Under the pieces are notes generated by a model that worked only from the letters and a program-made list of their open reading frames with translations, ran no database searches and was not told the DNA's origin. A DNA stretch of 64,000 bases from Candidatus Latescibacterota bacterium (GTDB taxonomy: Bacteria > Latescibacterota > UBA2968 > GCA-2709665): positions 512,001-576,000 of the forward strand of contig CAXXXF010000006.1 of assembly GCA_963667175.2 (NCBI GenBank), read 5' to 3'. Positions 39,782 to 64,000 of this stretch are shown here, piece after piece (the stretch's first letter is position 1; each line of letters opens with the position of its first letter). A program made the position numbers and the translations under genes.

Positions 39782-40687
39782 ATGTCAAAACCCAGAATCG
39801 GATTCATTGGACTCGGGATTATGGGAAAACCCATGTCCAATCACCTGCTCCAGGCCGGATACGCCGTCATTGTACACAACCGCAGCCGGGAACCGGTGGC
39901 AGAACTGGTTGAGGCGGGCGCCGGGGAAGCCCACTCCCCCAGAGAGGTGGCCGAAAACAGCGACGTGGTCATTAGCATGTTGCCCGACTCGCCGGACGTT
40001 CAGGAAGTCGCCCTCGGACCGGGCGGCATCATCGAAGGCGTAAGCCGGGACGACATCTACATTGACATGAGTACCATCGCGCCCAGCGTTGCCCTCGAGG
40101 TTGGCGGGGCGATGGCGAAAAAAGGCGTTCGATGCCTGGATGCGCCCGTGAGCGGAGGCGACGTGGGCGCACGGAATGCCACCCTTTCCATCATGGTGGG
40201 CGGCGAGGAGGAGATATTCGATTCAGTACGACCGATCTTCGCTGCAATGGGTCAGAATATCGTGCTGTGCGGGCCTCTGGGCGCGGGGCAGACCGTGAAG
40301 GCCTGCAACCAGGTTCTGGTTGCCGTCACCATCGCCGGCGTCTCGGAAGCGTTGACACTCGGCGCCAGGGCGGGCGTGGACCCAGCAAACATCGTACAGG
40401 TTCTGAGCGGGGGCCTCGCCCGATGCGGCGTGCTGGAGAACCGGGGCGAGCGCATGGTCAACGGCGACTTCGACCCCGGCTTCCGCATCCGGCTTCACTA
40501 CAAGGACCTCAACATCATCATGAAAACCGGCAGCGACTACAATGTGCCGCTGCCGGTAACGAGCATCGTTCACGAACTGTTCAATCTGGCGATGGCCAAA
40601 GACCGGGGCGAACTGGATCACTCCGGCCTGTTGACCGTGGTCGAAGACCTGGCCGGTGTGAAGGCGCGAACACCTGGGGCGGGATAA
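39782..40687 (+). CDS. 2-hydroxy-3-oxopropionate (tartronate semialdehyde) reductase family
   Basis: IGFIGLGIMGKPM, DAPVSGG, GAGQTVKACNQ, PGFRIRLHYKDL. Confidence 0.88.
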   Translation: MSKPRIGFIGLGIMGKPMSNHLLQAGYAVIVHNRSREPVAELVEAGAGEAHSPREVAENSDVVISMLPDSPDVQEVALGPGGIIEGVSRDDIYIDMSTIAPSVALEVGGAMAKKGVRCLDAPVSGGDVGARNATLSIMVGGEEEIFDSVRPIFAAMGQNIVLCGPLGAGQTVKACNQVLVAVTIAGVSEALTLGARAGVDPANIVQVLSGGLARCGVLENRGERMVNGDFDPGFRIRLHYKDLNIIMKTGSDYNVPLPVTSIVHELFNLAMAKDRGELDHSGLLTVVEDLAGVKARTPGAG

Positions 40688-40723
40688 ATTCCCTCAGGCG
40701 ATCTCAAGGTTGAACGAGACGTA

Positions 40724-40751
40724 AAACGCCCGGGAGATTTCCCGGGCGTTT
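40724..40751. terminator. Intrinsic terminator-like hairpin between convergent genes
   Basis: AAACGCCCGGGA-gatt-TCCCGGGCGTTT perfect 12-bp stem. Confidence 0.7.
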
Positions 40752-40859
40752 CTCATTTCCTGTATGGAGACATGGAATTGATCTGGGGCTGTGGAATTCT
40801 CTCCTCTTTACCTCCACAGGCAGATTTCGCTTTCGGATTTTGTGCCTGCCGGGAAGCAC

Positions 40860-41213
40860 TCATTTTTTCGTTCGATCCCCCTTGTAAATATCCCCTCGGG
40901 TGTCCATATCCGTTATATGGATATTGCCATCTTTTCTCTTATACACAATCCTGCAGTTTCCTGCCCTGATTCTGAACGCAGGATCGTTGGCTGGACGTCC
41001 TTCGATCTTGGAAGATCCTCTTCTATTCAAGGGGTCTTTAAGACCCTCTATCTTTGCGATTGCCACCCGTCCAACATCTGCAGGCAGACGATTCAAGAAT
41101 TCCAAGACTTCATCCCTGAAGACGATTCTTGGTTCCGGCCGATCTGGGAGCTCTTTCTCTGCGGGACTTTTTCTCTTCTTCCGACGCCGTGACTCATTCA
41201 CTCCATTCCCCAT
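40860..41213 (-). CDS. RelE/ParE-superfamily toxin (start may be GTG at 41201)
   Basis: FLNRLP, FRIRAGNCRIVY, DTRGDIYK C-terminus; overlaps the stop of the upstream small gene. Confidence 0.7.
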   Translation of the reverse strand: MGNGVNESRRRKKRKSPAEKELPDRPEPRIVFRDEVLEFLNRLPADVGRVAIAKIEGLKDPLNRRGSSKIEGRPANDPAFRIRAGNCRIVYKRKDGNIHITDMDTRGDIYKGDRTKK

Positions 41214-41434
41214 TTGTGCTTAAGCCTTTTGATGGCGCGATCCGACTCCTCAGCAGACAGCATCCTGCTCTTGCCGGTCCGAAGATCCTCGTCCACCTGC
41301 AACGACCGAGCCAGATCAGAGTCAACGGTCCCGTCATCATCCTCCTCGGAGAGAACGACTCGCCCAAATCGCCGGTTCAGAAATCCCGTTGCAGACACCC
41401 AACCAGCCCTCAGAACATCCGTCGCGTACCCCAT
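41198..41434 (-). CDS. Putative antitoxin (78 aa, acidic centre)
   Basis: RBS GGAGG; translationally coupled directly upstream of the RelE-like ORF; EEDDD acidic patch. Confidence 0.5.
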   Translation of the reverse strand: MGYATDVLRAGWVSATGFLNRRFGRVVLSEEDDDGTVDSDLARSLQVDEDLRTGKSRMLSAEESDRAIKRLKHKWGME

Positions 41435-41485
41435 ATCACCCTCCTTTCTGTAATTTCCCCCATACGCCTGATCTCTGCAGAAACA

Positions 41486-41930
41486 TCAAGCCGGCAGTTG
41501 GTCACATCCTGGCCGTTTACCAATCACGCCTGCCACCACGTCCCGCATCTGGTCAATCGTATCCAAATCGCGATGTTGTGCCGGCCGGTAAAGTCATTGA
41601 CGAACCGGTGCATGTGCTTTACCGTCATCTTGTGATACGTTCCATAATACCCCACTTCAGCATCGACCAGAAGGCTTCAATGCCGTTCGTATGGGCCTGA
41701 CCACGCACATACTCGCCCTCCGAATGCTGGACAGCCTCACGCTCGATATCCCCAGACCATCGAAAACCGATGCCTCATCACGGTAAATATACGGGCGTTC
41801 GTCCGGACTGGCAACTCCAGACAAGAAATTCCTCAACGTCTCCCTGTTGGTACGCTTCGGAACCCGGGCCTTCACCTGCCTGGTCTCCCTGTCTTTCGTA
41901 CCCATGACCGGCGTTTTACCCATCGTCCCA
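41486..41930 (-). mobile_element. IS1595-family transposase remnant (frameshifted, N-terminus missing)
   Basis: Fragments in three frames: GKTPVMGTKDRETRQVKA..YRDEASVF; EAVQHSEGEYVRGQAHTNGIEAFWSMLK.GYYGTYHKM..KHMHRFVNDF.GRHN; RDLDTIDQMRDVVAG. Confidence 0.85.
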
Positions 41931-42002
41931 CTTTGGGAATCAGGTTACTCGGCATGGCCCGGAACGATGCCCTGTGTGCCGCAACACCCAGGGTCAGTTT
42001 TG

Positions 42003-42254
42003 TCAAACTAAATCATTCTCAATTAAGTAACCTCGGCCTTTGTGACTCAAAGAGTATGAGGAATAGCGTCGATTAAGAGTCACAAGTTCAGCGTGCACAA
42101 GTTCTGTTACATAGTATCGAACTCTTGTGTAGCTTATTTCAAGTAATTCTGTTAATTCTTCTATAGAAAAACTTCTTCCATCATGTTCTGCAAGAATATC
42201 TAAAATTTGTTGTTCCTCTTCATCGAGAAGAACACTATCGTTATTTTTTGACAT
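42003..42254 (-). CDS. Small winged-helix DNA-binding-like protein, low GC
   Basis: EQQILDILAE..SIEELTELLEISYTRVRYYVTEL..YSLSHKGRGYL; RBS AGGAG; markedly AT-rich relative to the window. Confidence 0.65.
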   Translation of the reverse strand: MSKNNDSVLLDEEEQQILDILAEHDGRSFSIEELTELLEISYTRVRYYVTELVHAELVTLNRRYSSYSLSHKGRGYLIENDLV

Positions 42255-42571
42255 TATGATATCTCCTTTGTGTTTGTGGTTTTTTATGTATTGTATAGAT
42301 ATCTAATGAATCCTGTTGAATTTGTCAAGCGTTAAAAACCACCCGATTTTTGCAGATTTGGAGTGCCGGGGCCCTGAGAGTGCCTCCGGAATTCACACCC
42401 AACCCAACAAACAAAACAGATCCCCTGGGCAAATCTTGACGATCAGTCAATCCCAAGGGGTTATTTTGGGGGCTTATATACTTAACTTGATGCGCCTATC
42501 GCGGTCGCCAACGTACGCCTGAGGAATGACGAAAAGTCTTGCTTTTCGTTTCGTTTTTTGGTGGAATAAAA

Positions 42572-42656
42572 ACAGCCTCGATAGATGACTCTTTCGAGGC
42601 TGTCCTTGGGTTCCGGCCCGAGGCGGCCCTGAAGGATGACTCCTTCGGGGCTTTTT
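42572..42656. ncRNA. Candidate structured non-coding element: three tandem hairpins, outer two with identical GA-TGAC-TC apex
   Basis: ACAGCCTCGA..TCGAGGCTGT; CCTTGGG..CCCGAGG; GCCCTGAAGGA-tgac-TCCTTCGGGGC; flanked by A5 and T5 tracts. Confidence 0.4.
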
Positions 42657-42668
42657 CGTTCACTGAGA

Positions 42669-42696
42669 AATATACCTACTAAAGTACGGATGTCAA
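42669..42696 (-). promoter_or_regulatory. Sigma70-like promoter overlapped by TCCGTAC direct repeats
   Basis: Minus-strand TTGACA-N16-TATATT; GTACGGA(T) repeated three times plus one GTACAGA in about 42684-42742. Confidence 0.55.
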
Positions 42697-43378
42697 GTAT
42701 AATCGTCGTACAGAAGTCGTGTACGGATGTCAGGTACGGATTCACAGTAGATGGGTGGATTATACTCAGTAGCAGACTCTGAGATGGTATCGATGACGGC
42801 CTCGTTGACCTCTCTCGCCTGGTTCCAGTGCGTCTCGAACCATTCATGGAGCTGAGAAACCTCGCGTGCGCTCTGAATCTGTACATTCAGTTCGACGTTC
42901 CTCGTGAGACCCGGACGCGTGAAATTGCTGGAACCCACCAACGCCTGGGCGCCGACAACCTCAAGCTTTGCGTGGGTGATGTAGGCCTTGGCGTGAATTT
43001 TTCCTTGTCGTACACACGACAATCAATTTGCCCGGAGCGGAGGCCGTCGAGGATCGCAGGGACCCCGTGCAAGAACGGATTCGGTTCCTTGTCGTCCTCG
43101 ATACTGTCGTCCAATCTGTCAATTGCCTGGGTCCGGACCGCTTCGAGAATAGCTTTCCGGGTCCTGAGCGTGGTCTCCGCGCCCATCAGGATCCGGATCC
43201 TGTCGAGCCCCTGCCATCTGCCATTAAGGTCGAGCAGGGCGCCGATCTCGAAGTAACCGGTCGCGACGTCGAACGCCGTCGCGATGCTGGACCACTCCTC
43301 CAGATACCGGAGGCCGGTCCAGCCAGAGACACTGTTATCGACGATGAAGAGGTCGCGGCCTTTTGAGTCAACATTCAT
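42693..43378 (-). pseudogene. Truncated, frameshifted PLD-nuclease domain gene (N-terminus typical of PLD-SNF2 helicase defence/RM-associated proteins)
   Basis: FIVDNS..ATGYFEIG..VYDKEKF, then a 1-nt frameshift near 42995 to HAKAYI..VGSSNFT.PGL..NVELN; homology stops abruptly near 42775. Confidence 0.75.
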
Positions 43379-43387
43379 CACGCGCCC

Positions 43388-43957
43388 TCAGGCGGTCCAG
43401 CGCATGACGTCGTCGAGCGGTTTTCGCCTGGGGGAGGGAATCTCGCTGGGATACCCCATATAGAAGAATCCGATGATATACTCCCGGTCCCGGTCCACGT
43501 CGAGCAATTCGTACGTTTCCTTCTGCATGGTGATCGGACCCGTGCTCCACTGCATTCCAACACCCAGTTCCCAGGCCGCGAGCTGCACGTTCTGCATGGC
43601 GCAGCAGGCCGCCGCGTAGTCCTCCCGACGCCGCTGTTCGTCTCCCTCCTGCACGCAGGAGACCGCGACGATCGTGGGTTTGGACATGAACTTGCCGTAA
43701 CCCGCCTGCCAGAGCACCTTTCGGGCGTCTTCGCCTGCTTTTTCGGACGCCTTGCCCTGCTGGACGTCGCCGTATCGCCGCGCCAGCGTCTCCTTGGTCG
43801 TTTCCCCCAGAACGACAAACCGCCACGGTTCCGTAACATGGTGATTCGGCGCCCACAGGCCGAACTCGAAGATGCGCTTCAGCATCTCGTCAGATACGGG
43901 CCTGGAATTGAACTTGAAGATCGTCCGCCGCGCTTTCAGTACATCGAGTACGTCCAT
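43388..43957 (-). CDS. Nitroreductase family protein
   Basis: ARRTIFKF, APNHHVTEPWRFVV, QNVQLAAWELGVG, YMGYP. Confidence 0.9.
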   Translation of the reverse strand: MDVLDVLKARRTIFKFNSRPVSDEMLKRIFEFGLWAPNHHVTEPWRFVVLGETTKETLARRYGDVQQGKASEKAGEDARKVLWQAGYGKFMSKPTIVAVSCVQEGDEQRRREDYAAACCAMQNVQLAAWELGVGMQWSTGPITMQKETYELLDVDRDREYIIGFFYMGYPSEIPSPRRKPLDDVMRWTA

Positions 43958-44018
43958 CCCGACCCTCCACAAATGAACAGAGCCCCCGCGGATGACGGGG
44001 TCACTGATTGCCGCGTAG

Positions 44019-57456: not shown

Positions 57457-57705
57457 ATGCAGGTTGTGAGCGTCAAGACGTTCCTGGTTCACCCGGGCAG
57501 CGCGAAGAATACGAGGAACCGGTTTCCTCCCGAGACCTCAACGGGCTGGCGGAAGCAAGACGGAACATCAACGTCCCTGTGGTCACCGGCGAGGAACTCT
57601 ATACGAAGACCGAGTTCCGCGACGCGTTCGAGAAACGCGCCACCGACGTCATCAACCCGGACGTCTGCAATTGCGGCGGGATTCTGGAGCTTCGCGAAAT
57701 CGCGC
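57457..57705 (+). pseudogene. Deleted remnant of a galactonate-dehydratase-like enolase-superfamily gene
   Basis: N-terminal MQVVSVKTFLVHPGSAKN joined out of frame to EEPV..VPVVTGEELYTK..DVINPDVCNCGGILELREIA; the rest is missing. Confidence 0.75.
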
Positions 57706-57833
57706 CCTCCGGCATCCGAGCGACGAAGGGCCGTAGCGATTGCAACTTCCGTGTAACGTACAGCGGCAATTGTCCCCGGTCGATCCAACCCGGATTCCAG
57801 GCAAACCTGTAATTCACGCGAAGGAGGCAGACA

Positions 57834-58871
57834 ATGGATCGTGACGACGTGCGCCAGAGACTGGAAGCGCTCGAAGGCAAACTACGATGGCAGAAACGGG
57901 CGATTGCAGGATTGCTGGTTGTCTTCCTCTTCGGCGCGTCACCGGCGTTGACCCAGGCGTCGAAGTGGCTCGGGAGCAGGCTTCCGGCAGAACTGGCCTC
58001 GTTGAGCCTTCAACACGGCTCGACGACCGGTGACGTGCGGTTTGGCGATATGTCGCCAGGCCGGGCCGAACTTCCGTTGCCGGAGGCCGCTAACGATGGA
58101 CTGAGCAAGATCGATCCGGAGCAGATCATCGATGCAGGCGACACCTTGCGGGTCGGCACCCTTCACGTCGTCAATGCGAGCGGGGAGGTCGTTGCAGCCC
58201 TCGGGTCGGACGAGACGGGAGACGGTTCGCTGGTGATCTTGAACAGAAACGGCTCGGTGGTTTCCGTTGTGGGCGTTGACGCAAACGGACACGGGACCCT
58301 GGGGGTCCTCAATGCGGCCGGGCGAGTCGCGGCCGCCATGGGCGCCGATCCGTCGGAACAGGCCAATGGATGGGTCGACGCCCGGAGCGTGACGGGTTCC
58401 GCGGCCGCACTCGCCTTCGATGGCGCCGGAGACGGCACCGTGCTGGTGTTCAACTCGGATGACAAGCTGGTCTCCGGATTCGGTGTTGACAACAACGGCG
58501 CCGGCGCCCTTCGCATCTCGAATGCGGAGGGTGGAGTCGTTTCCGCCATAGGCGCGAATGAGAATGGACATGGACTTATCGGGTTCTACAATGCGTCCAG
58601 GAGGGTTGTCGCCGGCATGGGCGCGGATTCGACGGGCGTCGGTGGGCTGGGGATTGAGGGAGGCAGGTTCAGGGCTTTTGTCGACGGGAACGGGAACGGC
58701 GTTGCAGAAACTCACGGGCAGGATGGGAATCTTCGATGGTCCTCCGAAGCGCCTGCCGTCGGGGACACCGGCACGACGAGCGGCCTGATCGGGGATTTCG
58801 ACGGGGACGGAGACGTGGATTTCGCCGACTTCCTCACCTTCGCCAGAAATTTCGGCAGAACGAGCGGGTAG
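57834..58871 (+). CDS. Exported or membrane-anchored Gly-rich beta-repeat protein with C-terminal EF-hand/dockerin-like motif
   Basis: RBS AGGAGG; N-terminal coil plus hydrophobic helix; about 22-aa repeats GxDxxGxGxLxxxNxxG; GDFDGDGDVDFADFLTFARNFG. Confidence 0.75.
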   Translation: MDRDDVRQRLEALEGKLRWQKRAIAGLLVVFLFGASPALTQASKWLGSRLPAELASLSLQHGSTTGDVRFGDMSPGRAELPLPEAANDGLSKIDPEQIIDAGDTLRVGTLHVVNASGEVVAALGSDETGDGSLVILNRNGSVVSVVGVDANGHGTLGVLNAAGRVAAAMGADPSEQANGWVDARSVTGSAAALAFDGAGDGTVLVFNSDDKLVSGFGVDNNGAGALRISNAEGGVVSAIGANENGHGLIGFYNASRRVVAGMGADSTGVGGLGIEGGRFRAFVDGNGNGVAETHGQDGNLRWSSEAPAVGDTGTTSGLIGDFDGDGDVDFADFLTFARNFGRTSG

Positions 58872-59042
58872 CAGAACGCCCGCTTCGACAAGATCGAATC
58901 CCGCCTGGACAGGGTCGACGCACGCCTGGATTCATTCGGCGAACGTATTGCAGGAAACGAAGGCAGACTGAACGACAAAGCGTACCCCCCTTCCTATCCC
59001 CATCAATTCATGAAACGGAACAAACATGGATGGACAGGATGA
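58872..59042 (+). pseudogene. Start-less fragment homologous to the C-terminal half of coiled-coil gene 62520-62786
   Basis: ARFDKIESRLDRVDARLDSFGERIAGNEG vs KRFDKIDERLDKIDERLDSFGERIARNEG; in frame after the TAG of the upstream gene. Confidence 0.7.
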
Positions 59043-59098
59043 AAACCAAAAAGCGCGACAAAGGCACGAGAAAATGAACATCAGAAACTACGAAACAC

Positions 59099-59223
59099 GC
59101 GCCTGCCTGCCGCGGGAAGCGAAGCGGCGCAGGCAGGCGGCAGGCAGGCACATGCCGAGCCGGTTCCTGAGCCTGCAGTCCCTGACCCTGTCGAAGGGTC
59201 GAATGGCCGGCGACGGCTGATGC
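59099..59223. repeat. Nested palindromic repeat block, copy 1
   Basis: Near-identical to 62896-63021; contains GCCTGCCTGC..GCAGGCAGGC and CCTGAG/CCCTGA..TCGAAGGG units. Confidence 0.85.
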
Positions 59224-59241
59224 GGAGGGGGGAATTCAATA

Positions 59242-59335
59242 CCTTTCGCCAGGGGATTACACAGAAAGGCGCCATTCGCAAAACACGCGTTCATTTGTTG
59301 TGCGAAGGCAGCGCGGAGCGTGGCAGGGAATTTCG
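59242..59335 (+). repeat. Conserved upstream structured element, copy 1
   Basis: Homologous to 62325-62415 (full) and to 60238-60290 and 63023-63060 (3' part). Confidence 0.8.
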
Positions 59336-59353
59336 TCTCGTAATAAAACCCAC

Positions 59354-59382
59354 TTGACACGAGTACCGCGTTTGTGTACCGT
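59354..59382 (+). promoter_or_regulatory. Sigma70 promoter of coiled-coil gene 1
   Basis: TTGACA-N17-TACCGT, conserved in all three paralogs. Confidence 0.7.
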
Positions 59383-59423
59383 TTCCATCAGAGTACGATC
59401 AGGTACAACCGGGAGCAAGTACT

Positions 59424-59813
59424 ATGGACGCAGAAATCCTCCGCCTGTTTATCTCCATCGTAACACCTATAGTGGCTATCGTTGGTATCGGATGGTTCGG
59501 TCTGGATCGGATGGAACAGAGAATAAAGGCCGATGCCCAACAGATGGAACAGAGAATAAAGGCCGATGCCCAACAGATGGAACAGAGAATAAAGGCCGAT
59601 GCCCAACAGATGGAACAGAGAATAAGAGAGGATGCCCAAAAGGCCCACGGTCAGATTGGCCTGAACATCGAAACATTGCGATCTGAAGTAAGTGGTGTAC
59701 GAACTGAAATGAGCGACATGCGAAAAGAGATTACGGACCTGACGGGCCGAGTAGGGCATATCGAGGGCATGCTCGAAGGTATGCGAGACGCCACAAAATC
59801 CACCCCCGAGTAA
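59424..59813 (+). CDS. Small N-terminally anchored coiled-coil protein, paralog 1 (4 x 11-aa repeat)
   Basis: RBS GGGAG; hydrophobic segment ILRLFISIVTPIVAIVGIGWFGL; (MEQRIKADAQQ)3 + MEQRIREDAQK; RVGHIEG. Confidence 0.85.
   Translation: MDAEILRLFISIVTPIVAIVGIGWFGLDRMEQRIKADAQQMEQRIKADAQQMEQRIKADAQQMEQRIREDAQKAHGQIGLNIETLRSEVSGVRTEMSDMRKEITDLTGRVGHIEGMLEGMRDATKSTPE
59511..59642 (+). repeat. Intragenic 33-bp tandem repeat (3 perfect + 1 variant)
   Basis: ATGGAACAGAGAATAAAGGCCGATGCCCAACAG at 59511, 59544, 59577; variant at 59610. Confidence 0.95.
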
Positions 59814-59986
59814 ATTCCCACCGCTTATCCCCCCGGCTTTTCATCCGCCGCAACCACCATTTAAGTCACGCCTCAATTCCCCTCTTTGACCTGTCCCTCC
59901 ATTCCCGAATTCACCACCGGGGAATCGCCTGCAAACACCGCCCTGGTGACCTCTACCTGCGACCATACAATCCCCCCTCGAATACA
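59814..59986 (+). repeat. Conserved downstream element, copy 1
   Basis: CCACCGCTTATCCCCCC..CCGCAACC..GGGGAATCGCCTGCAAACA..GACCTC; homologs at 60687-60821 and 63484-63530 + 63750-63862. Confidence 0.8.
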
Positions 59987-60313
59987 TATTACGGGGAGCA
60001 CCGTATTGTTTACATCCTCCCACCCTTCTTTGGTGGGCCTGGATGTCGACAATTTGCAATTCATGAAAATAAACGGAAGCTGTCGACTGCTCTTTCTGAC
60101 CACTGGCCACTGTCCACTATTTACTGCTCCTGGTAATAACTACGAAACACGATCAGGATTTACAGGACGAACAGGATTAAGCGAGATTAGAAACCTGGAG
60201 CATGGCAAAAGCACCGAGAAAACGAACAACGGAAACTACGCGTTCGTTTGCTGTGCGTAGGCAGCGCACAGCGTGTCAGGGAATTTCGCCCTGACACGAT
60301 TTAATAAACCCAC

Positions 60314-60342
60314 TTGACACGAGTACCGCGTTTGTGTACCGT
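60314..60342 (+). promoter_or_regulatory. Sigma70 promoter of coiled-coil gene 2
   Basis: TTGACA-N17-TACCGT, identical to copy 1. Confidence 0.7.
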
Positions 60343-60383
60343 TTCCATCAGAGTACGATCAGGTACAACCGGGAGTGAGTACT

Positions 60384-60686
60384 ATGGACGCAGAAATCCT
60401 TCGCCTGCTTATCTCCATCGTAACGCCTATAGCGGCTATTGTTGGTATCGGATGGTTCGGTCTGGATAGAATGGAACAGAGAATCAAAGCCGATGCCCAA
60501 AAGGCCCATGACCTTATTGGACAAAACATCGAAACATTGCGATCTGAGATACGATCTGATATAAGTGAGATACGTTCTGAAGTAAGAGGTATGCGAAGTG
60601 AAATAACGGACCTGACGGGCCGAGTAGGGCATATCGAGGGCATGCTCGAAGTCATGCGAGATGACTCAAGATCCACCCCCGAGTAA
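60384..60686 (+). CDS. Small N-terminally anchored coiled-coil protein, paralog 2 (1 repeat)
   Basis: MDAEILRLLISIVTPIAAIVGIGWFGLDRMEQRIKADAQK..RVGHIEGMLE..STPE. Confidence 0.85.
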   Translation: MDAEILRLLISIVTPIAAIVGIGWFGLDRMEQRIKADAQKAHDLIGQNIETLRSEIRSDISEIRSEVRGMRSEITDLTGRVGHIEGMLEVMRDDSRSTPE

Positions 60687-60890
60687 ATTTCCACCGCTTA
60701 TCCCCCCGCCTTTCAGCCACCGCAACCGCCCTTCAAATTCCCTCATTGACGTATCCTCTTCCTTGCCCGGTTTCACCACTGGGGAATCGCCTGCAAACAA
60801 CGCTCCGGCGACCTCCTCCGGCCTGGCGTTGATACCCACCTCTTGTTCCATCTCCGCTTCCGTAGATTGAGACAGAAATACAGTCTTCTG

Positions 60891-60919
60891 TTGCAAATTG
60901 CGACATAGATGACTATCTT
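60891..60919 (+). promoter_or_regulatory. Second conserved sigma70-like promoter, upstream of the UDG-like cargo gene
   Basis: TTGCAA-N17-TATCTT followed by CGCGTT..AACGCG hairpin; repeated at 63937-64000. Confidence 0.6.
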
Positions 60920-61165
60920 TCCACCGCGTTGAAAACGAACGCGTCGTCTGCGCGACGGCTATTTTTCCGATGCAGCTTGACAATCCGGGCGAACGGGCCA
61001 CGGACGACGTTCGCGTATGAGTCGCCCTGCTTGTTGGGGACTCCGCATACAATGGATCTCAGAAAGGCGCAGGTTGCGTGCGGACGGATTGTACCAATAT
61101 ATATGAGACAATTCCCCCCCCTTTGATTAAGCAACCATGGACAGAGCGAAGGAAGGAGCGCAGGC

Positions 61166-61864
61166 ATGCAAAGCATCCGAAAGCAAAAACGCATTGCGGT
61201 GCTCGCCCATCACCGCCGGGAGAACGTATTTTCCGGATACAGCGGAATCGGCGACTATCATTCCGGCGCCTATGAGTGCGATTTCGTATCGCCCTACACG
61301 AAGTCCGCAGGAAACGTGGACGCCGATATCATGCTCGTGCTGCAGGATTGGTGTTCCGATGAATACTTGCGGCAAAAGAAACGTGCGGATTCTGATCTGG
61401 TCAGGCTTGGACACGACCCGCAGTTGGAAGCCAACAAGAATCTCAAGAGCCTGCTTTTCACTCATTTTGGAATCGGATTGGAGAAAACCTACGCGACAAA
61501 TCTGTTTCCATTCATAAAGCCTGGAACGATGAACGCGAGTGTTCGATTCGCAGATCTGAAGAAGGCAGCAGAGATCTACACCGTACCGGAAATTGAAATT
61601 GTGGCGCCGAGGCTCGTCGTGTGTCTTGGTGCGGTTGTGTATCGTGCAATCCGTAAGACGTGCGGACTGCCGCCAGCCGGCGACCTCGACATGGCCATTA
61701 AGTCGCCGTTTTGTTTCGGGAGCGGGCAAGTTTGGGCTCAATCACATCCGGGTAGACTGGGACAGAATAACCGCAATCGAGGAGGAGTAAATCGCGTCGC
61801 TGGGGACTGGCGACGAATGGCGGAGGCGGTTGCGTGGGACGTTTCTCGGGGTCGGCCGAAGTAG
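61166..61864 (+). CDS. Uracil-DNA glycosylase-like superfamily protein
   Basis: GNVDADIMLVLQDW, YATNLFPFIK, EIEIVAPRLVVCLG, SHPG; RBS AAGGAG. Confidence 0.7.
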   Translation: MQSIRKQKRIAVLAHHRRENVFSGYSGIGDYHSGAYECDFVSPYTKSAGNVDADIMLVLQDWCSDEYLRQKKRADSDLVRLGHDPQLEANKNLKSLLFTHFGIGLEKTYATNLFPFIKPGTMNASVRFADLKKAAEIYTVPEIEIVAPRLVVCLGAVVYRAIRKTCGLPPAGDLDMAIKSPFCFGSGQVWAQSHPGRLGQNNRNRGGVNRVAGDWRRMAEAVAWDVSRGRPK

Positions 61865-62159
61865 AGTGCCTCACGAGGGGCGCGAGCTCCGCCCCTATGT
61901 CTGCCGCTCGTCGGACCCGCCATCGCGACTCGTTCACGAACTTACCCACCGCCAGCCGGCACTGGCGCCCGGGTCTCTCCCGACCCAGCCGAAGATGTTT
62001 CGCATGCCTGTCTGCCGATGATTTTCTGGCAGACAGGACGGCTTCCTCAGCATGACAGTTCGAGCACAAGGGTGACGCACGCATTTCGCGGGTGAATTGG
62101 CCTGCTTGGCACCGACTCCCCCGACACTTATTCCGCGAGGCGTTCGGCAAGCCGTTGTT

Positions 62160-62303
62160 CCGGTTCGGCGGATTGCGGTGGATGCGTCCCGGCGCGATTT
62201 CGGCGGCGTAGACGTCGGCGGATCAAAGACGATTTTTGTAACGGTCACGAATTCCGGAGACGCTCCACTGTCCATTACGGAAATCACCACCAGCGATGAA
62301 CGT
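62160..62303 (+). pseudogene. Isolated fragment of an ASH/choice-of-anchor-D Ig-like domain
   Basis: IAVDASRRDFGGVDVGGSKTIFVTVTNSGDAPLSITEITTSD; no credible start, cut off at the conserved upstream element. Confidence 0.55.
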
Positions 62304-62519
62304 GTGAGCGATTCGCTCCGCCAATTTTCGTCAAGGGATTACACTGAAAGGCGCCATACGCAAAACACGCGTCTGTTCGTTGTGCGTAGGCAGCGTACCG
62401 CGTGCCGGAAATTTGAAAACTTCCCTTGACAAGTCTCAAAAAACCGACTTGACAACTGTCACCCTTTGGCGCAGTCTTTTCAGCAAAGTAAACTCAGAAG
62501 TAAACTGGGAAGGTGCGAC

Positions 62520-62786
62520 GTGGAGACTTCCAGAAGCAAGTTCTTCAGTGGCGACAATTTGAGAATGGCAATCTTTCTGGTGACACTACTAACTGCAGTG
62601 TGGGGCATTGTGTGGTCACTTAATACCAGCCTTGAAAGTAGAATGATCGCTCGCTTTGACAAAGTTGACAAACGCTTTGACAAGATAGATGAACGCCTGG
62701 ATAAGATAGACGAACGCCTGGATTCCTTTGGGGAGCGTATAGCCAGAAACGAAGGCACTATTGATGCGTTAGGATCCTCCAAGTAA
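62520..62786 (+). CDS. Small N-terminally anchored heptad coiled-coil protein (second family)
   Basis: GTG start after GGAAGG; TM MAIFLVTLLTAVWGIVWSL; 21-bp/7-aa repeats RFDKVDK RFDKIDE RLDKIDE; ERIARNEG. Confidence 0.75.
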   Translation: METSRSKFFSGDNLRMAIFLVTLLTAVWGIVWSLNTSLESRMIARFDKVDKRFDKIDERLDKIDERLDSFGERIARNEGTIDALGSSK

Positions 62787-62895
62787 TCCCCTACCGCTTA
62801 TCCCCCCTCGAATACATAACTACGAAACACGCGAATAAAACGAAAGAGCCGCGGCTGCCCCCTTGAGGGGAAGTCGCCTGCCTGCGCCAGGCGGA

Positions 62896-63021
62896 GCGCC
62901 TGCCTGCCGCGGGAAGCGAAGCGGCGCAGGCAGGCGGCAGGCAGGCACATGCCGAGCCGGTTCCTGAGCTTGCAGCGCCCTGACCCTGTCGAAGGGTCGA
63001 ATGGCTGGCGACGGCTGATGC
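62896..63021. repeat. Nested palindromic repeat block, copy 2
   Basis: Near-identical to 59099-59223, preceded by an extra GCCTGCCTGCGCC half-unit. Confidence 0.85.
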
Positions 63022-63077
63022 CGCGCGAAGGCAGCGCGTAGCGTGTCAGGGAATTTCGCCTCGAAAGAGAAACTCGC

Positions 63078-63106
63078 TTGACACGAGTACCGTTTTAAGG
63101 TACCGT
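63078..63106 (+). promoter_or_regulatory. Sigma70 promoter of coiled-coil gene 3
   Basis: TTGACA-N17-TACCGT; spacer diverged but both hexamers and spacing kept. Confidence 0.72.
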
Positions 63107-63147
63107 TTTCATCAGAGTAGCATCAGGAACAACCGGGAGCGAGTACT

Positions 63148-63483
63148 ATGGACACAGAAATCCTCCGCCTGCTTATCTCCATCGTAACACCTATAGCGGC
63201 TATTGTTGGTATCGGATGGTTCGGTCTGGATAGAATGGAACAGAGAATCAAAGCCGATGCCCAACAGATGGAACAGAGAATAAGAGAGGATGCTCAAAAA
63301 GCTCACGATCAGATAGGCCTGAACATCGAAACATTGCGATCTGAGATACGATCTGATACAAGCGGGATACGATCTGAATTGAGCGACATGCGAAAAGAGA
63401 TTACGGACCTGACGGGCCGAGTAGGACGTATCGAGGGCATGCTCGAAGGTATGCGAGATGCCTCGAAATCCACCCCCGAGTAA
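63148..63483 (+). CDS. Small N-terminally anchored coiled-coil protein, paralog 3 (2 repeats)
   Basis: MDTEILRLLISIVTPIAAIVGIGWFGLDR MEQRIKADAQQ MEQRIREDAQK..RVGRIEG..STPE. Confidence 0.85.
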   Translation: MDTEILRLLISIVTPIAAIVGIGWFGLDRMEQRIKADAQQMEQRIREDAQKAHDQIGLNIETLRSEIRSDTSGIRSELSDMRKEITDLTGRVGRIEGMLEGMRDASKSTPE

Positions 63484-63933
63484 ATTCCCACCGCTTATCC
63501 TCCCGCTTTTCATCCGCCGCAACCGCCTATTAACCTCAATTCGAAAAAAGACAACCGAAAAATCGGCCACAAAAGGCACAAAAGACACAAAGGGCATAGC
63601 TGCAAAACGGCGTGTAGAGGTTGTCGAAAGGCATGTTATCACGGTTCACCACCAGTGACCTGAAGGTTCCTGAAAATCCGACGTCAAATCGCCATTATTC
63701 ACCTGCGTTTATTCGAATTCACGTTCCCTGAGAACCACGAATCAAGGTTAAGCCACGCTTCAAATTCCCGCCTTGAGCTGTCCCCCCTTGCCGGTTTCAT
63801 CACCGGGGAATCGCCTGCAAACAGCGCTCCCCCGACCTCTTCCGGCGACCATACAATCCCCCGTTAAATTCGTTAAATAGTGGACGCATGACACCTGTTT
63901 TGTTTTATATTGAAGAAGTGCGAATGCGGCGCT

Positions 63934-64000
63934 CTGTTGCAAATTGCGACATCTTGACTATCTTTCCACCGCGTTGAAACCGAACGCGTGGCCTGCGCGA
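63934..64000 (+). promoter_or_regulatory. Second copy of the TTGCAA-N17-TATCTT promoter and hairpin leader, cut by the window end
   Basis: Homologous to 60888-60956. Confidence 0.6.

Follow-up and report, generated by a model that had tools for sequence, protein, structure and literature searches.

The stretch analysed here, referred to throughout as the window, comprises 64,000 nucleotides (nt) of a sponge-associated Candidatus Latescibacterota genome (assembly GCA_963667175.2, contig CAXXXF010000006.1, positions 512,001 to 576,000; G000:C6:512001-576000 in our numbering, where G000 is this genome). Its right end carries a cluster of small genes, all on the + strand, whose products are predicted to be membrane-anchored coiled-coil proteins. 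The open reading frame (ORF) listing and the sequence place there three intact genes of one type (family 1; starting at 59424, 60384 and 63148), one intact gene of a second type (family 2; 62520) and one family-2 3' fragment (58872), in agreement with a preliminary description of the locus, which had gone on to propose that each gene sits in the same conserved non-coding frames and that the whole is a cassette-like, recombining array. The reading that we favour, as probable though well short of certain, is a different one: 5.3 kb of accessory DNA in a variable gap, holding duplicated small membrane coiled-coil genes of one genus and no cassette system. The features of the cluster and its left border are, in order:

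57834 to 58871, + strand: gene for a 345-amino-acid (aa) protein, the left conserved flank, with an N-terminal coil, a membrane helix and a dockerin-like GDFDGDGDVDFADF end; no Pfam family above cut-off; orthologs in the same place in the relatives G013, G017, G019 and G012.
58872 to about 58998, + strand: family-2 3' fragment with coil and conserved tip only, own stop codon lost, directly after the TAG of the 345-aa gene.
59000 to 59230, no strand: dispersed short repeats, genome-wide (mean 16-56 other copies per 50-nt bin).
59244 to 59335, + strand: upstream frame, full copy 1 (D5 part 59277-59335; repeat families D5 and D9).
59354 to 59382, + strand: promoter-like site TTGACA-17 nt-TACCGT, 70 nt ahead of the ATG, a putative assignment read from the sequence.
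59424 to 59813, + strand: family-1 gene, 129 aa, with ~4 copies of a 33-nt repeat (QQMEQRIKADA; D3), supported by ORF, repeats, alignment A1 and the ratio of nonsynonymous to synonymous divergence (dN/dS).
59814 to 59985, - strand: 3' flank, in which the last ~40 codons of a convergent ~70-aa gene can be read as a frameshifted relic, the 'downstream frame' being the stop region of that gene.
60000 to 60200, no strand: dispersed short repeats (mean 10-22 other copies per 50-nt bin).
60229 to 60288, + strand: upstream frame, partial copy 2 (D5 60230-60288; repeat map).
60384 to 60686, + strand: family-1 gene, 100 aa, one repeat copy, TTGACA at 60314-60319 (ORF, A1, dN/dS).
60687 to 60865, - strand: relic of the convergent small gene (...AEMEQEVGINARPEEVAGALFAGDSPVVKPGK..EFEG), stop lost (TAG to TGG); profile match at G000:C6:572720-572869, E 2e-15, profile positions 20-68 of 70.
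61166 to 61864, + strand: UDG-superfamily-like ORF, 232 aa, a passenger between units (PF03167 23.1 bits against a cut-off of 24.3; NCBIfam matches far under cut-off).
62112 to 62329, + strand: pseudogene scrap, a copy of an Ig-like domain from the neighbouring S8 peptidase gene (81% identity to window-equivalent 67225-67442).
62326 to 62417, + strand: upstream frame, full copy 3, ahead of the family-2 gene (D5 part 62359-62417; in D9, 84% identity to copy 1).
62426 to 62431 and 62449 to 62454, + strand: two TTGACA boxes ahead of the family-2 gene, from the sequence.
62520 to 62786, + strand: family-2 gene, 88 aa from a GTG (ORF, homolog starts).
62800 to 63021, no strand: dispersed repeats, of which 62896-63021 is 97% identical to 59099-59223 (D7, D12).
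63019 to 63058, + strand: upstream frame, partial copy 4 (D5 63000-63058; repeat map).
63148 to 63483, + strand: family-1 gene, 111 aa, two repeat copies, TTGACA at 63078-63083 (ORF, A1, dN/dS).
63500 to 63750, no strand: dispersed-repeat insertion separating the 3' flank of the 63148 gene from the relic that follows (mean 17-37 other copies per 50-nt bin).
63748 to 63862, - strand: relic of the convergent small gene (PEEVGGALFAGDSPVMKPARGDSSRREFEAWL; profile match at G000:C6:575747-575848, E 2e-8).

The three family-1 paralogs are 87-91% identical in alignment A1. Synonymous divergence between the window copies (dS 0.24-0.36) shows that they are not assembly duplicates, as had been supposed from the start. 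The in-frame 33-nt repeat is present ~4 times in the 59424 gene, once in 60384, twice in 63148 and three times in P0003. The GTG start of the family-2 gene is backed by the homologs P0015 and P0018, both beginning MDTSSSKFFSG, and the 58872 fragment has an 85.5% identical counterpart in G013, a family-2 copy truncated in the same way and found at the corresponding place. A repeat search and self-BLAST delimited the pieces that recur in the cluster: the upstream frame four times, a family-1 unit of promoter, leader and coding sequence three times, a 16-nt motif behind each stop and an additional ~115-nt block behind each family-1 gene.

We located 22 family genes in the whole genome (5 of family 1 and 17 of family 2), encoding proteins of 69-129 aa. 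All 22 have one hydrophobic N-terminal segment (Kyte-Doolittle, KD, 1.3-2.4), followed by a tail that is 34-55% charged, contains no Cys and almost no Pro, and shows a hydrophobic periodicity of 3.5-3.67 residues, several-fold over background; a/d heptads can be read by eye along the tails. The C-terminal sequences, G-E-R-I-A-K-N-E-A-R-L in family 2 and G-R-V-G-R-I-E-G-M-L in family 1, give a common tip G-E/R-R-V/I-x-x-N/I-E-G/A. The architecture proposed beforehand, a hydrophobic helix, a coil and a conserved end, was thus borne out. Family-1 dN/dS was 0.15-0.31 and below 1 in all ten pairs; for family 2 the median was 0.27, with values below 1 in 79/79 usable pairs (41 saturated pairs of the 120 were left out). 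The genes are real and under purifying selection, with no diversification by substitution. Of the earlier suggestion that the locus diversifies its proteins, only the variation in repeat number stands.

Relatives share the order SDR gene, 345-aa gene, 383-aa paralog and S8 peptidase gene, and the gap between the 345-aa gene and its paralog measures 5.3 kb in G000, ~107 nt in G019, ~2.1 kb in G017, where it holds an unrelated 520-aa Sel1-like gene, ~2.1 kb in G012, and ~1.9 kb in G013, where a 3' piece of the UDG-like gene is found along with a relic and a shortened family-2 copy. The UDG-like ORF and the Ig-domain scrap had both been recognised between the units, and the Pfam score and the 81% identical copy uphold them. 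The UDG-like ORF is intact in G000 and represented at the equivalent site in G013 by its 3' piece only; the scrap lies ~5 kb from its S8 peptidase gene, which stands just right of the window and encodes 969 aa with Peptidase_S8 and Ig-like domains. Four intergenic stretches of the gap consist of dispersed repeats (mean 10-56 other copies per 50-nt bin), and one word of these, ACTACGAAACACG, occurs 41 times in the genome. The locus has been shaped by duplication, deletion and repeat insertion in a variable hotspot, with purifying selection acting on the genes. The cluster was probably built by duplication of segments, deletion and insertion of dispersed repeats, with no visible part for site-specific cassette recombination. 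What had been called a duplicating and recombining locus therefore holds as far as the repeat map shows duplicated, rearranged units, and not as regards cassette-like recombination.

Several further observations concern this surrounding DNA. The two ~350-aa paralogs that frame the gap (57834-58871 and window-equivalent 64138-65289, the latter L013 1138-2289), presumably surface proteins, share an XhlA-like N-terminal coil and a membrane helix, and both end in a dockerin-like GDxDGDGxVD; neither protein is assigned to a Pfam family. The S8 peptidase has the same type of end. The genome as a whole is rich in modular short dispersed repeats, with arrangements such as ...GGATGGACAGGATGAAAACC...ACTACGAAACACGCGAAAAA..., GATCAGGATTTACAGGAT units and a GC-rich palindromic block. 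A sub-threshold Rfam match to the small RNA ES003 at 61990-62034 on the minus strand (27.6 bits against 37, E 0.03) is most likely due to chance. Elsewhere in the window, positions 40001-44000 have a G+C content of 0.53-0.565 against about 0.60-0.65 around them, and may be an accessory segment. Sponge metagenome contigs matched up to 0.49 of sampled words, some pieces being identical, and the run with the best match may be the source sample.

The case for a cassette system had rested mainly on the occurrence of the same frame around non-paralogous genes. Direct profile comparison of family 1 with family 2 gave a weak result (17.8% probability). A 69-aa ORF on contig C18 links them: it aligns to family 1 (hhalign 93.9%, E 1.6e-7) and to family 2 (87%, E 4e-6), in both cases over the membrane-proximal G-x-G-W and the C-terminal tip. 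In addition, ~130 nt of 3' flank are common to the two families. Families 1 and 2 are thus probably distant paralogs, branches of one superfamily, and with this the main argument of the preliminary description, a frame shared by unrelated genes, falls. The C18 ORF itself (G000:C18:13336-13545; L007 1471-1680) adjoins a dispersed repeat and overlaps the preceding 401-aa ORF by 4 nt.

The repeated flanks were confirmed: an upstream frame is present at four copies, with TTGACA after each (at -70 in all three window family-1 genes), and only the downstream pattern as originally written was one position off. Neither the core GGCAGCG-N4-GCGTG nor a search with 59244-59345 found the upstream frame anywhere but in the cluster (4 genome-wide matches each), and the latter search found none in the 14 other genomes of the genus. 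These 14 formed our comparison set together with 7 genomes of other genera in the family and 31 of the sister family. Searching this genome and its relatives for the upstream frame, a check suggested together with the cassette idea, went against it. The family-1 genes at C6:668812 and C10:80314 have no upstream frame. Identity between the copies (64-85% in D5, 84% in D9) is about what synonymous divergence predicts. Being confined to four local copies, the upstream frame is best explained as locally duplicated spacer DNA, within which a small hairpin around WAGGCAG is possible.

TTGACA, the next part of the frame, is not peculiar to the cluster. In the 160 nt upstream of the start, 21 of the 22 family genes carry it, at distances of 53-139 nt, and the fuller motif TTGACA-N16-18-TAnnnT precedes 16 of the 22; genome-wide this motif is found 327 times against ~39 expected. 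The sites of best consensus (CTTGACA-N16-18-TA.TTT) number 41 in G000, and nine of these belong to family genes. TTGACA would accordingly be the -35 box of a strong housekeeping-type, sigma-70-like promoter of predicted activity. The idea that family-2 units are bounded by direct repeats was rejected after BLAST of the 22 upstream against the 22 downstream flanks, which returned only overlaps between adjacent genes and dispersed repeats.

The downstream pattern in its original form matches three of the four window sites and one site on contig C10. At the fourth, near 63489, the sequence reads CACCGCTTATCCTCCC, which puts the written pattern off by one position. Translated from the minus strand, the 3' flank gives ...PEEVAxALFAGDPPVVKSGKGExSKxEFEAWLxxR-stop, with the stop codon lying inside the 'CTACCGC' of the frame. 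The flank matches the C-terminal half of a family of 62-87-aa proteins without a Pfam match (alignment A3, 10 sequences, 57% mean column identity). This family has 13 profile matches in G000, of which one is full length (C10:70351-70560) and 12 are partial or interrupted, most of them beside family genes; near-full copies lie ~20 nt from family-2 genes in G014, G015 and G009, the G015 copy having no stop and possibly being a relic. We read the downstream frame as the stop and last codons of a convergent small gene, present here as relics, and not as a recombination site. With the flank a relic of a convergent neighbour, the unit that was copied would comprise promoter, gene and half of that neighbour. 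The frame's three parts would then be of separate origin: a duplicated spacer confined to four copies, a common promoter box and the end of a convergent gene, copied together with the unit each time and surviving as a relic.

The only full-length copy of the convergent gene in this genome (L041 4348-4560, minus strand: YQPTKAEMEEDVSIDATPEEV..DDPPVVKSGKGEKSKKEFEAWLKRR) directly follows a ParE-like ORF (PF05016 E 0.0025, below cut-off), in an island with genes for an AAA_15 ATPase and a HipA-N-like protein.

The convergent arrangement could also mean that the membrane coiled-coil gene and the ~70-residue gene together form a two-gene module, addiction-like in the manner of toxin-antitoxin (TA) pairs or regulated by 3' antisense transcription, that spreads as a selfish unit. 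Convergent pairs in G014, G015 and G009, partial copies in G013 and G006, and, in G006, G010 and G011, divergently oriented upstream fragments from the N-terminal part of the small gene are in line with this, as are stops a few nt apart in G000, a copy number of 0 to 19 among species and the place of the sole intact small gene of G000 after a ParE-like toxin ORF in an AAA_15/HipA-N island. Yet 12 of the 13 partner matches in G000 are broken or partial and the membrane genes beside them are intact under purifying selection; proteins of 69-129 aa with a long conserved soluble tail are unlike typical type I toxins; and the G015 partner, its stop lost, may be a relic too. We regard such a module as improbable. 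An undescribed selfish or protective two-gene module that copies itself round the genomes of this sponge-associated genus and leaves half-gene relics, its conserved 3' overlap serving as a regulatory or recombination element, is to our minds a similarly doubtful proposition.

That the conserved frames are recombination or insertion borders at which different genes are shuffled is the explanation we rate lowest, and we consider it very unlikely. It can call on the same upstream frame before two families and the same 16-nt downstream motif after both, on unit borders that coincide with the truncated S8 peptidase copy (62329) and the family-2 copy (58872), and on metagenome contigs of one run (X3) with two variant joints, one between 60500 and 63234 (61-letter side), the other between 63526 and 63752 (38-letter side) and lacking the dispersed-repeat insertion there. 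These contigs are short, of low depth and matched at 90% likeness; the joints weakly hint at a simpler arrangement in related strains, possibly a related strain's single gene. The upstream frame is found nowhere else, the downstream motif is explained as a coding relic, and the decayed copy in G013, similar to the 58872 fragment, points to deletion. A recombinase is likewise missing from the vicinity. Three PF00589 matches exist in the genome (C15:410068, C6:674348, C12:285282), and the nearest of them, a tyrosine recombinase at C6:674348, lies 98 kb from the array. The initial observation that no integrase lies near the array was therefore correct; for transposases the same was noted without a systematic scan.

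Integron cassette arrays resemble the cluster in having small genes on one strand with recurring short sequences between them. They differ from it in three respects: no integrase lies within 98 kb, no attC-like inverted repeats are found at the frames (the inverted-repeat search gave three pairs in 57500-64000, all elsewhere), and promoter-like TTGACA stands ahead of nearly every family gene (21/22), whereas integron cassettes are mostly promoterless.

The distribution of the two families is narrow. A search of a 5.8-billion-protein index with family 1 gave 12 clusters at E<=0.001 among 28 candidates. Five family-1 genes are present in G000, strong matches in one of the 14 other genomes of the genus, and matches of any kind in 4 of 53 genomes across the order, two of these being weak; a contig scan with the family-1 alignment elsewhere added two weak 26-residue matches in Flavobacteriia metagenome-assembled genomes. 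Family 2, counted at E<=1e-6, has 19 matches in G000 and 1-9 in 13 of the 14 other genomes of the genus; outside the genus there is a single weak match among the 31 sister-family genomes, and none among the 7 from the family's other genera. Its profile found 13 proteins at E<=1e-10 among 1.84 billion representatives, ten of them single-stretch matches of 66-91 aa, and the 1380 matches at E<=0.001 were mostly repeated-coil matches within longer proteins.

Within G000, 13 dispersed family-2 genes have mutually unrelated neighbours (heparinase, BamB-like, APH, DNA methylase, M16 peptidase, nitrilase, GNAT, group II intron reverse transcriptase and Fe-ADH genes). Family-2 genes are dispersed among unrelated neighbours, and the array is no dedicated locus. 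The group II intron reverse transcriptase/maturase ORF lies ~850 nt upstream of its family-2 gene (L034 753-2123; G000:C6 about 323-324.5 kb). At G000:C6:668812-669461 (L014) the order seen in the window and on C10 is inverted: the family-1 gene comes first and the family-2 gene 107 nt after it, and a tyrosine recombinase gene is located 4.9 kb beyond this pair. Two ORFs flank the single family-1 gene of G017 (L019, G017:C2:4872741-4876034); judged by eye, one resembles RelE/ParE and the other a Panacea/DUF4065 antitoxin.

No Pfam or NCBIfam model reached its curated cut-off with the small membrane proteins of the cluster, and the expectation that they would fit no characterised family was confirmed. 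DUF6779 (PF20570) came closest, with 27.5 bits against 28.1 for the repeat-rich 59424 gene and 17.3 and 16.2 for the other two; CCDC90-like/DUF1640 (PF07798) gave at best 27.1 bits against 33.5 (63148 gene; 24.3 and 14.1 for the others), and XhlA (PF10779) 16.3 bits against 34.7 for the family-2 gene. CCDC90-like/DUF1640 and XhlA proteins are similarly small, with a coiled coil and one membrane helix; apart from the sub-threshold scores, the difference is that their anchor is at the C-terminal end and that of the cluster proteins at the N-terminal end. Borrelia Bdr proteins are small coiled-coil membrane proteins with repeats of variable number, from a multi-copy family restricted to its lineage; they have a C-terminal anchor and are plasmid-borne. 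On this general description they are alike in kind and differ in anchor end and plasmid location. A Braun lipoprotein (Lpp)-like lipobox Cys is absent, there being no Cys in any of the 22 proteins. A sequence search of the Protein Data Bank (PDB) returned only weak matches to trimeric coiled coils from viruses or phages, with E no better than 2.8e-4 (family 2) and 1.5e-3 (family 1); we take them to be composition effects.

A phage source deserves more weight, and we consider it unlikely rather than negligible that these are phage-derived membrane proteins, i-spanin-like or from prophage exclusion or defence, that were kept and multiplied in accessory regions. The best library match of family 2 is phrog_12015, a profile of uncharacterised phage proteins, found with all three tested proteins (E 1e-11, 7e-11 and 1e-8) across membrane segment and coil; only about positions 66-150 of the 165-position profile are matched, and the score may be composition-driven. 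For family 1 there are weak matches to PHROGs of Rz-like spanins, with E 3e-5 at best. By tblastn, 16 phage records were matched below 60% identity, among them Mannheimia phages, in which 94% of the query aligns with 31-33% identity (best E 6e-6) and the gene lies in the immunity region, two genes downstream of a CI-like repressor and on the same strand. Family genes are also often found beside toxin-antitoxin, methylase, PIN and group II intron genes. According to PMC5295617, i-spanins of the lambda Rz type have one membrane helix at the N-terminus, then coiled-coil segments, and a C-terminal end that matters for function, a description that the predicted N-terminal membrane domain and coiled coil of all 22 proteins fit. 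Against this, an o-spanin-like lipoprotein ORF with a lipobox is embedded in or lies <=400 nt downstream, on the same strand, of none of the 22 genes, and a Pfam scan of 29 neighbour ORFs at the 13 dispersed family-2 loci (E<=1e-5) gave no lysis, phage-structural or integrase match, nor do the window neighbours include a lysis cassette. The cluster proteins are moreover shorter than the i-spanin (69-129 against 153 aa), without Cys, chromosomal, multi-copy and provided with promoter-like sites of their own. With PADLOC defence models all matches were weak (E 8.6e-5 at best) and fell on the coiled-coil stretches of long proteins, short of a defence assignment, and coiled-coil composition inflates such scores. 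Finally, most species of the genus have kept one subfamily, with a terminator-like site (hairpin plus T) and a 3' flank that is near-identical between them, and this subfamily looks like a core cellular gene. Two proline-rich + strand ORFs overlapping the 3' ends of family-1 genes (60661-60870 and 63458-63658) were considered as o-spanin-like and rejected, as they have neither signal peptide nor Cys.

With accessory DNA and duplicated genus-specific genes as the preferred account, the products may be pictured as follows. Each gene would be transcribed alone, from its own strong sigma-70-like promoter. Its protein would be anchored in the cytoplasmic membrane and extend as a parallel, homo-oligomeric coiled-coil stalk, whose length in family 1 may be set by the in-frame 11-residue repeats and whose invariant tip may bind a common partner. 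Under Harbury's rules, Ile at a with Leu at d favours dimers and beta-branched residues at both positions favour trimers. Family 2, with Ile at a and Leu at d, would on these rules form dimers, and family 1, with beta-branched a and d residues, trimers.

Several findings weigh against this account or parts of it. A strict sigma-70 site scan gave no + strand promoter in the region. Charges flanking the membrane segment are ambiguous for topology, especially in family 1, and promoter activity, oligomeric state and topology are all deduced from sequence. The homology of the two families depends on a single intermediate, given the weakness of the direct comparison (17.8%). Non-coding flanks are in places better conserved than expected for pure relics: neighbouring family-2 and family-1 genes on C10 share, by our own reading, a roughly 95% identical 60-nt 3' flank while their coding regions differ, which could reflect gene conversion or point to a role of the flank, for instance as terminator, antisense RNA or recombination site. 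Lastly, 8 of the 23 family genes counted for this purpose lie <=600 nt from a dispersed-repeat motif, against 0.37 expected, at roughly four independent loci, and repeat-linked mobility is therefore possible.

The literature searched, main texts only and not exhaustively, yielded no description of these genes. The proteins are an undescribed family, found almost only in one genus, of familiar architecture and with an ordinary locus structure. A candidate new cassette system thus gives way to an ordinary account of hotspot duplication, promoters and gene relics, with no sign of a new mechanism. What is left for the biology of the organism is a genus-restricted superfamily of membrane coiled-coil proteins present in about two dozen copies in one sponge-associated genome, each with its own putative promoter; if the proteins are abundant in the envelope, they may be relevant to the biology of this symbiont lineage.

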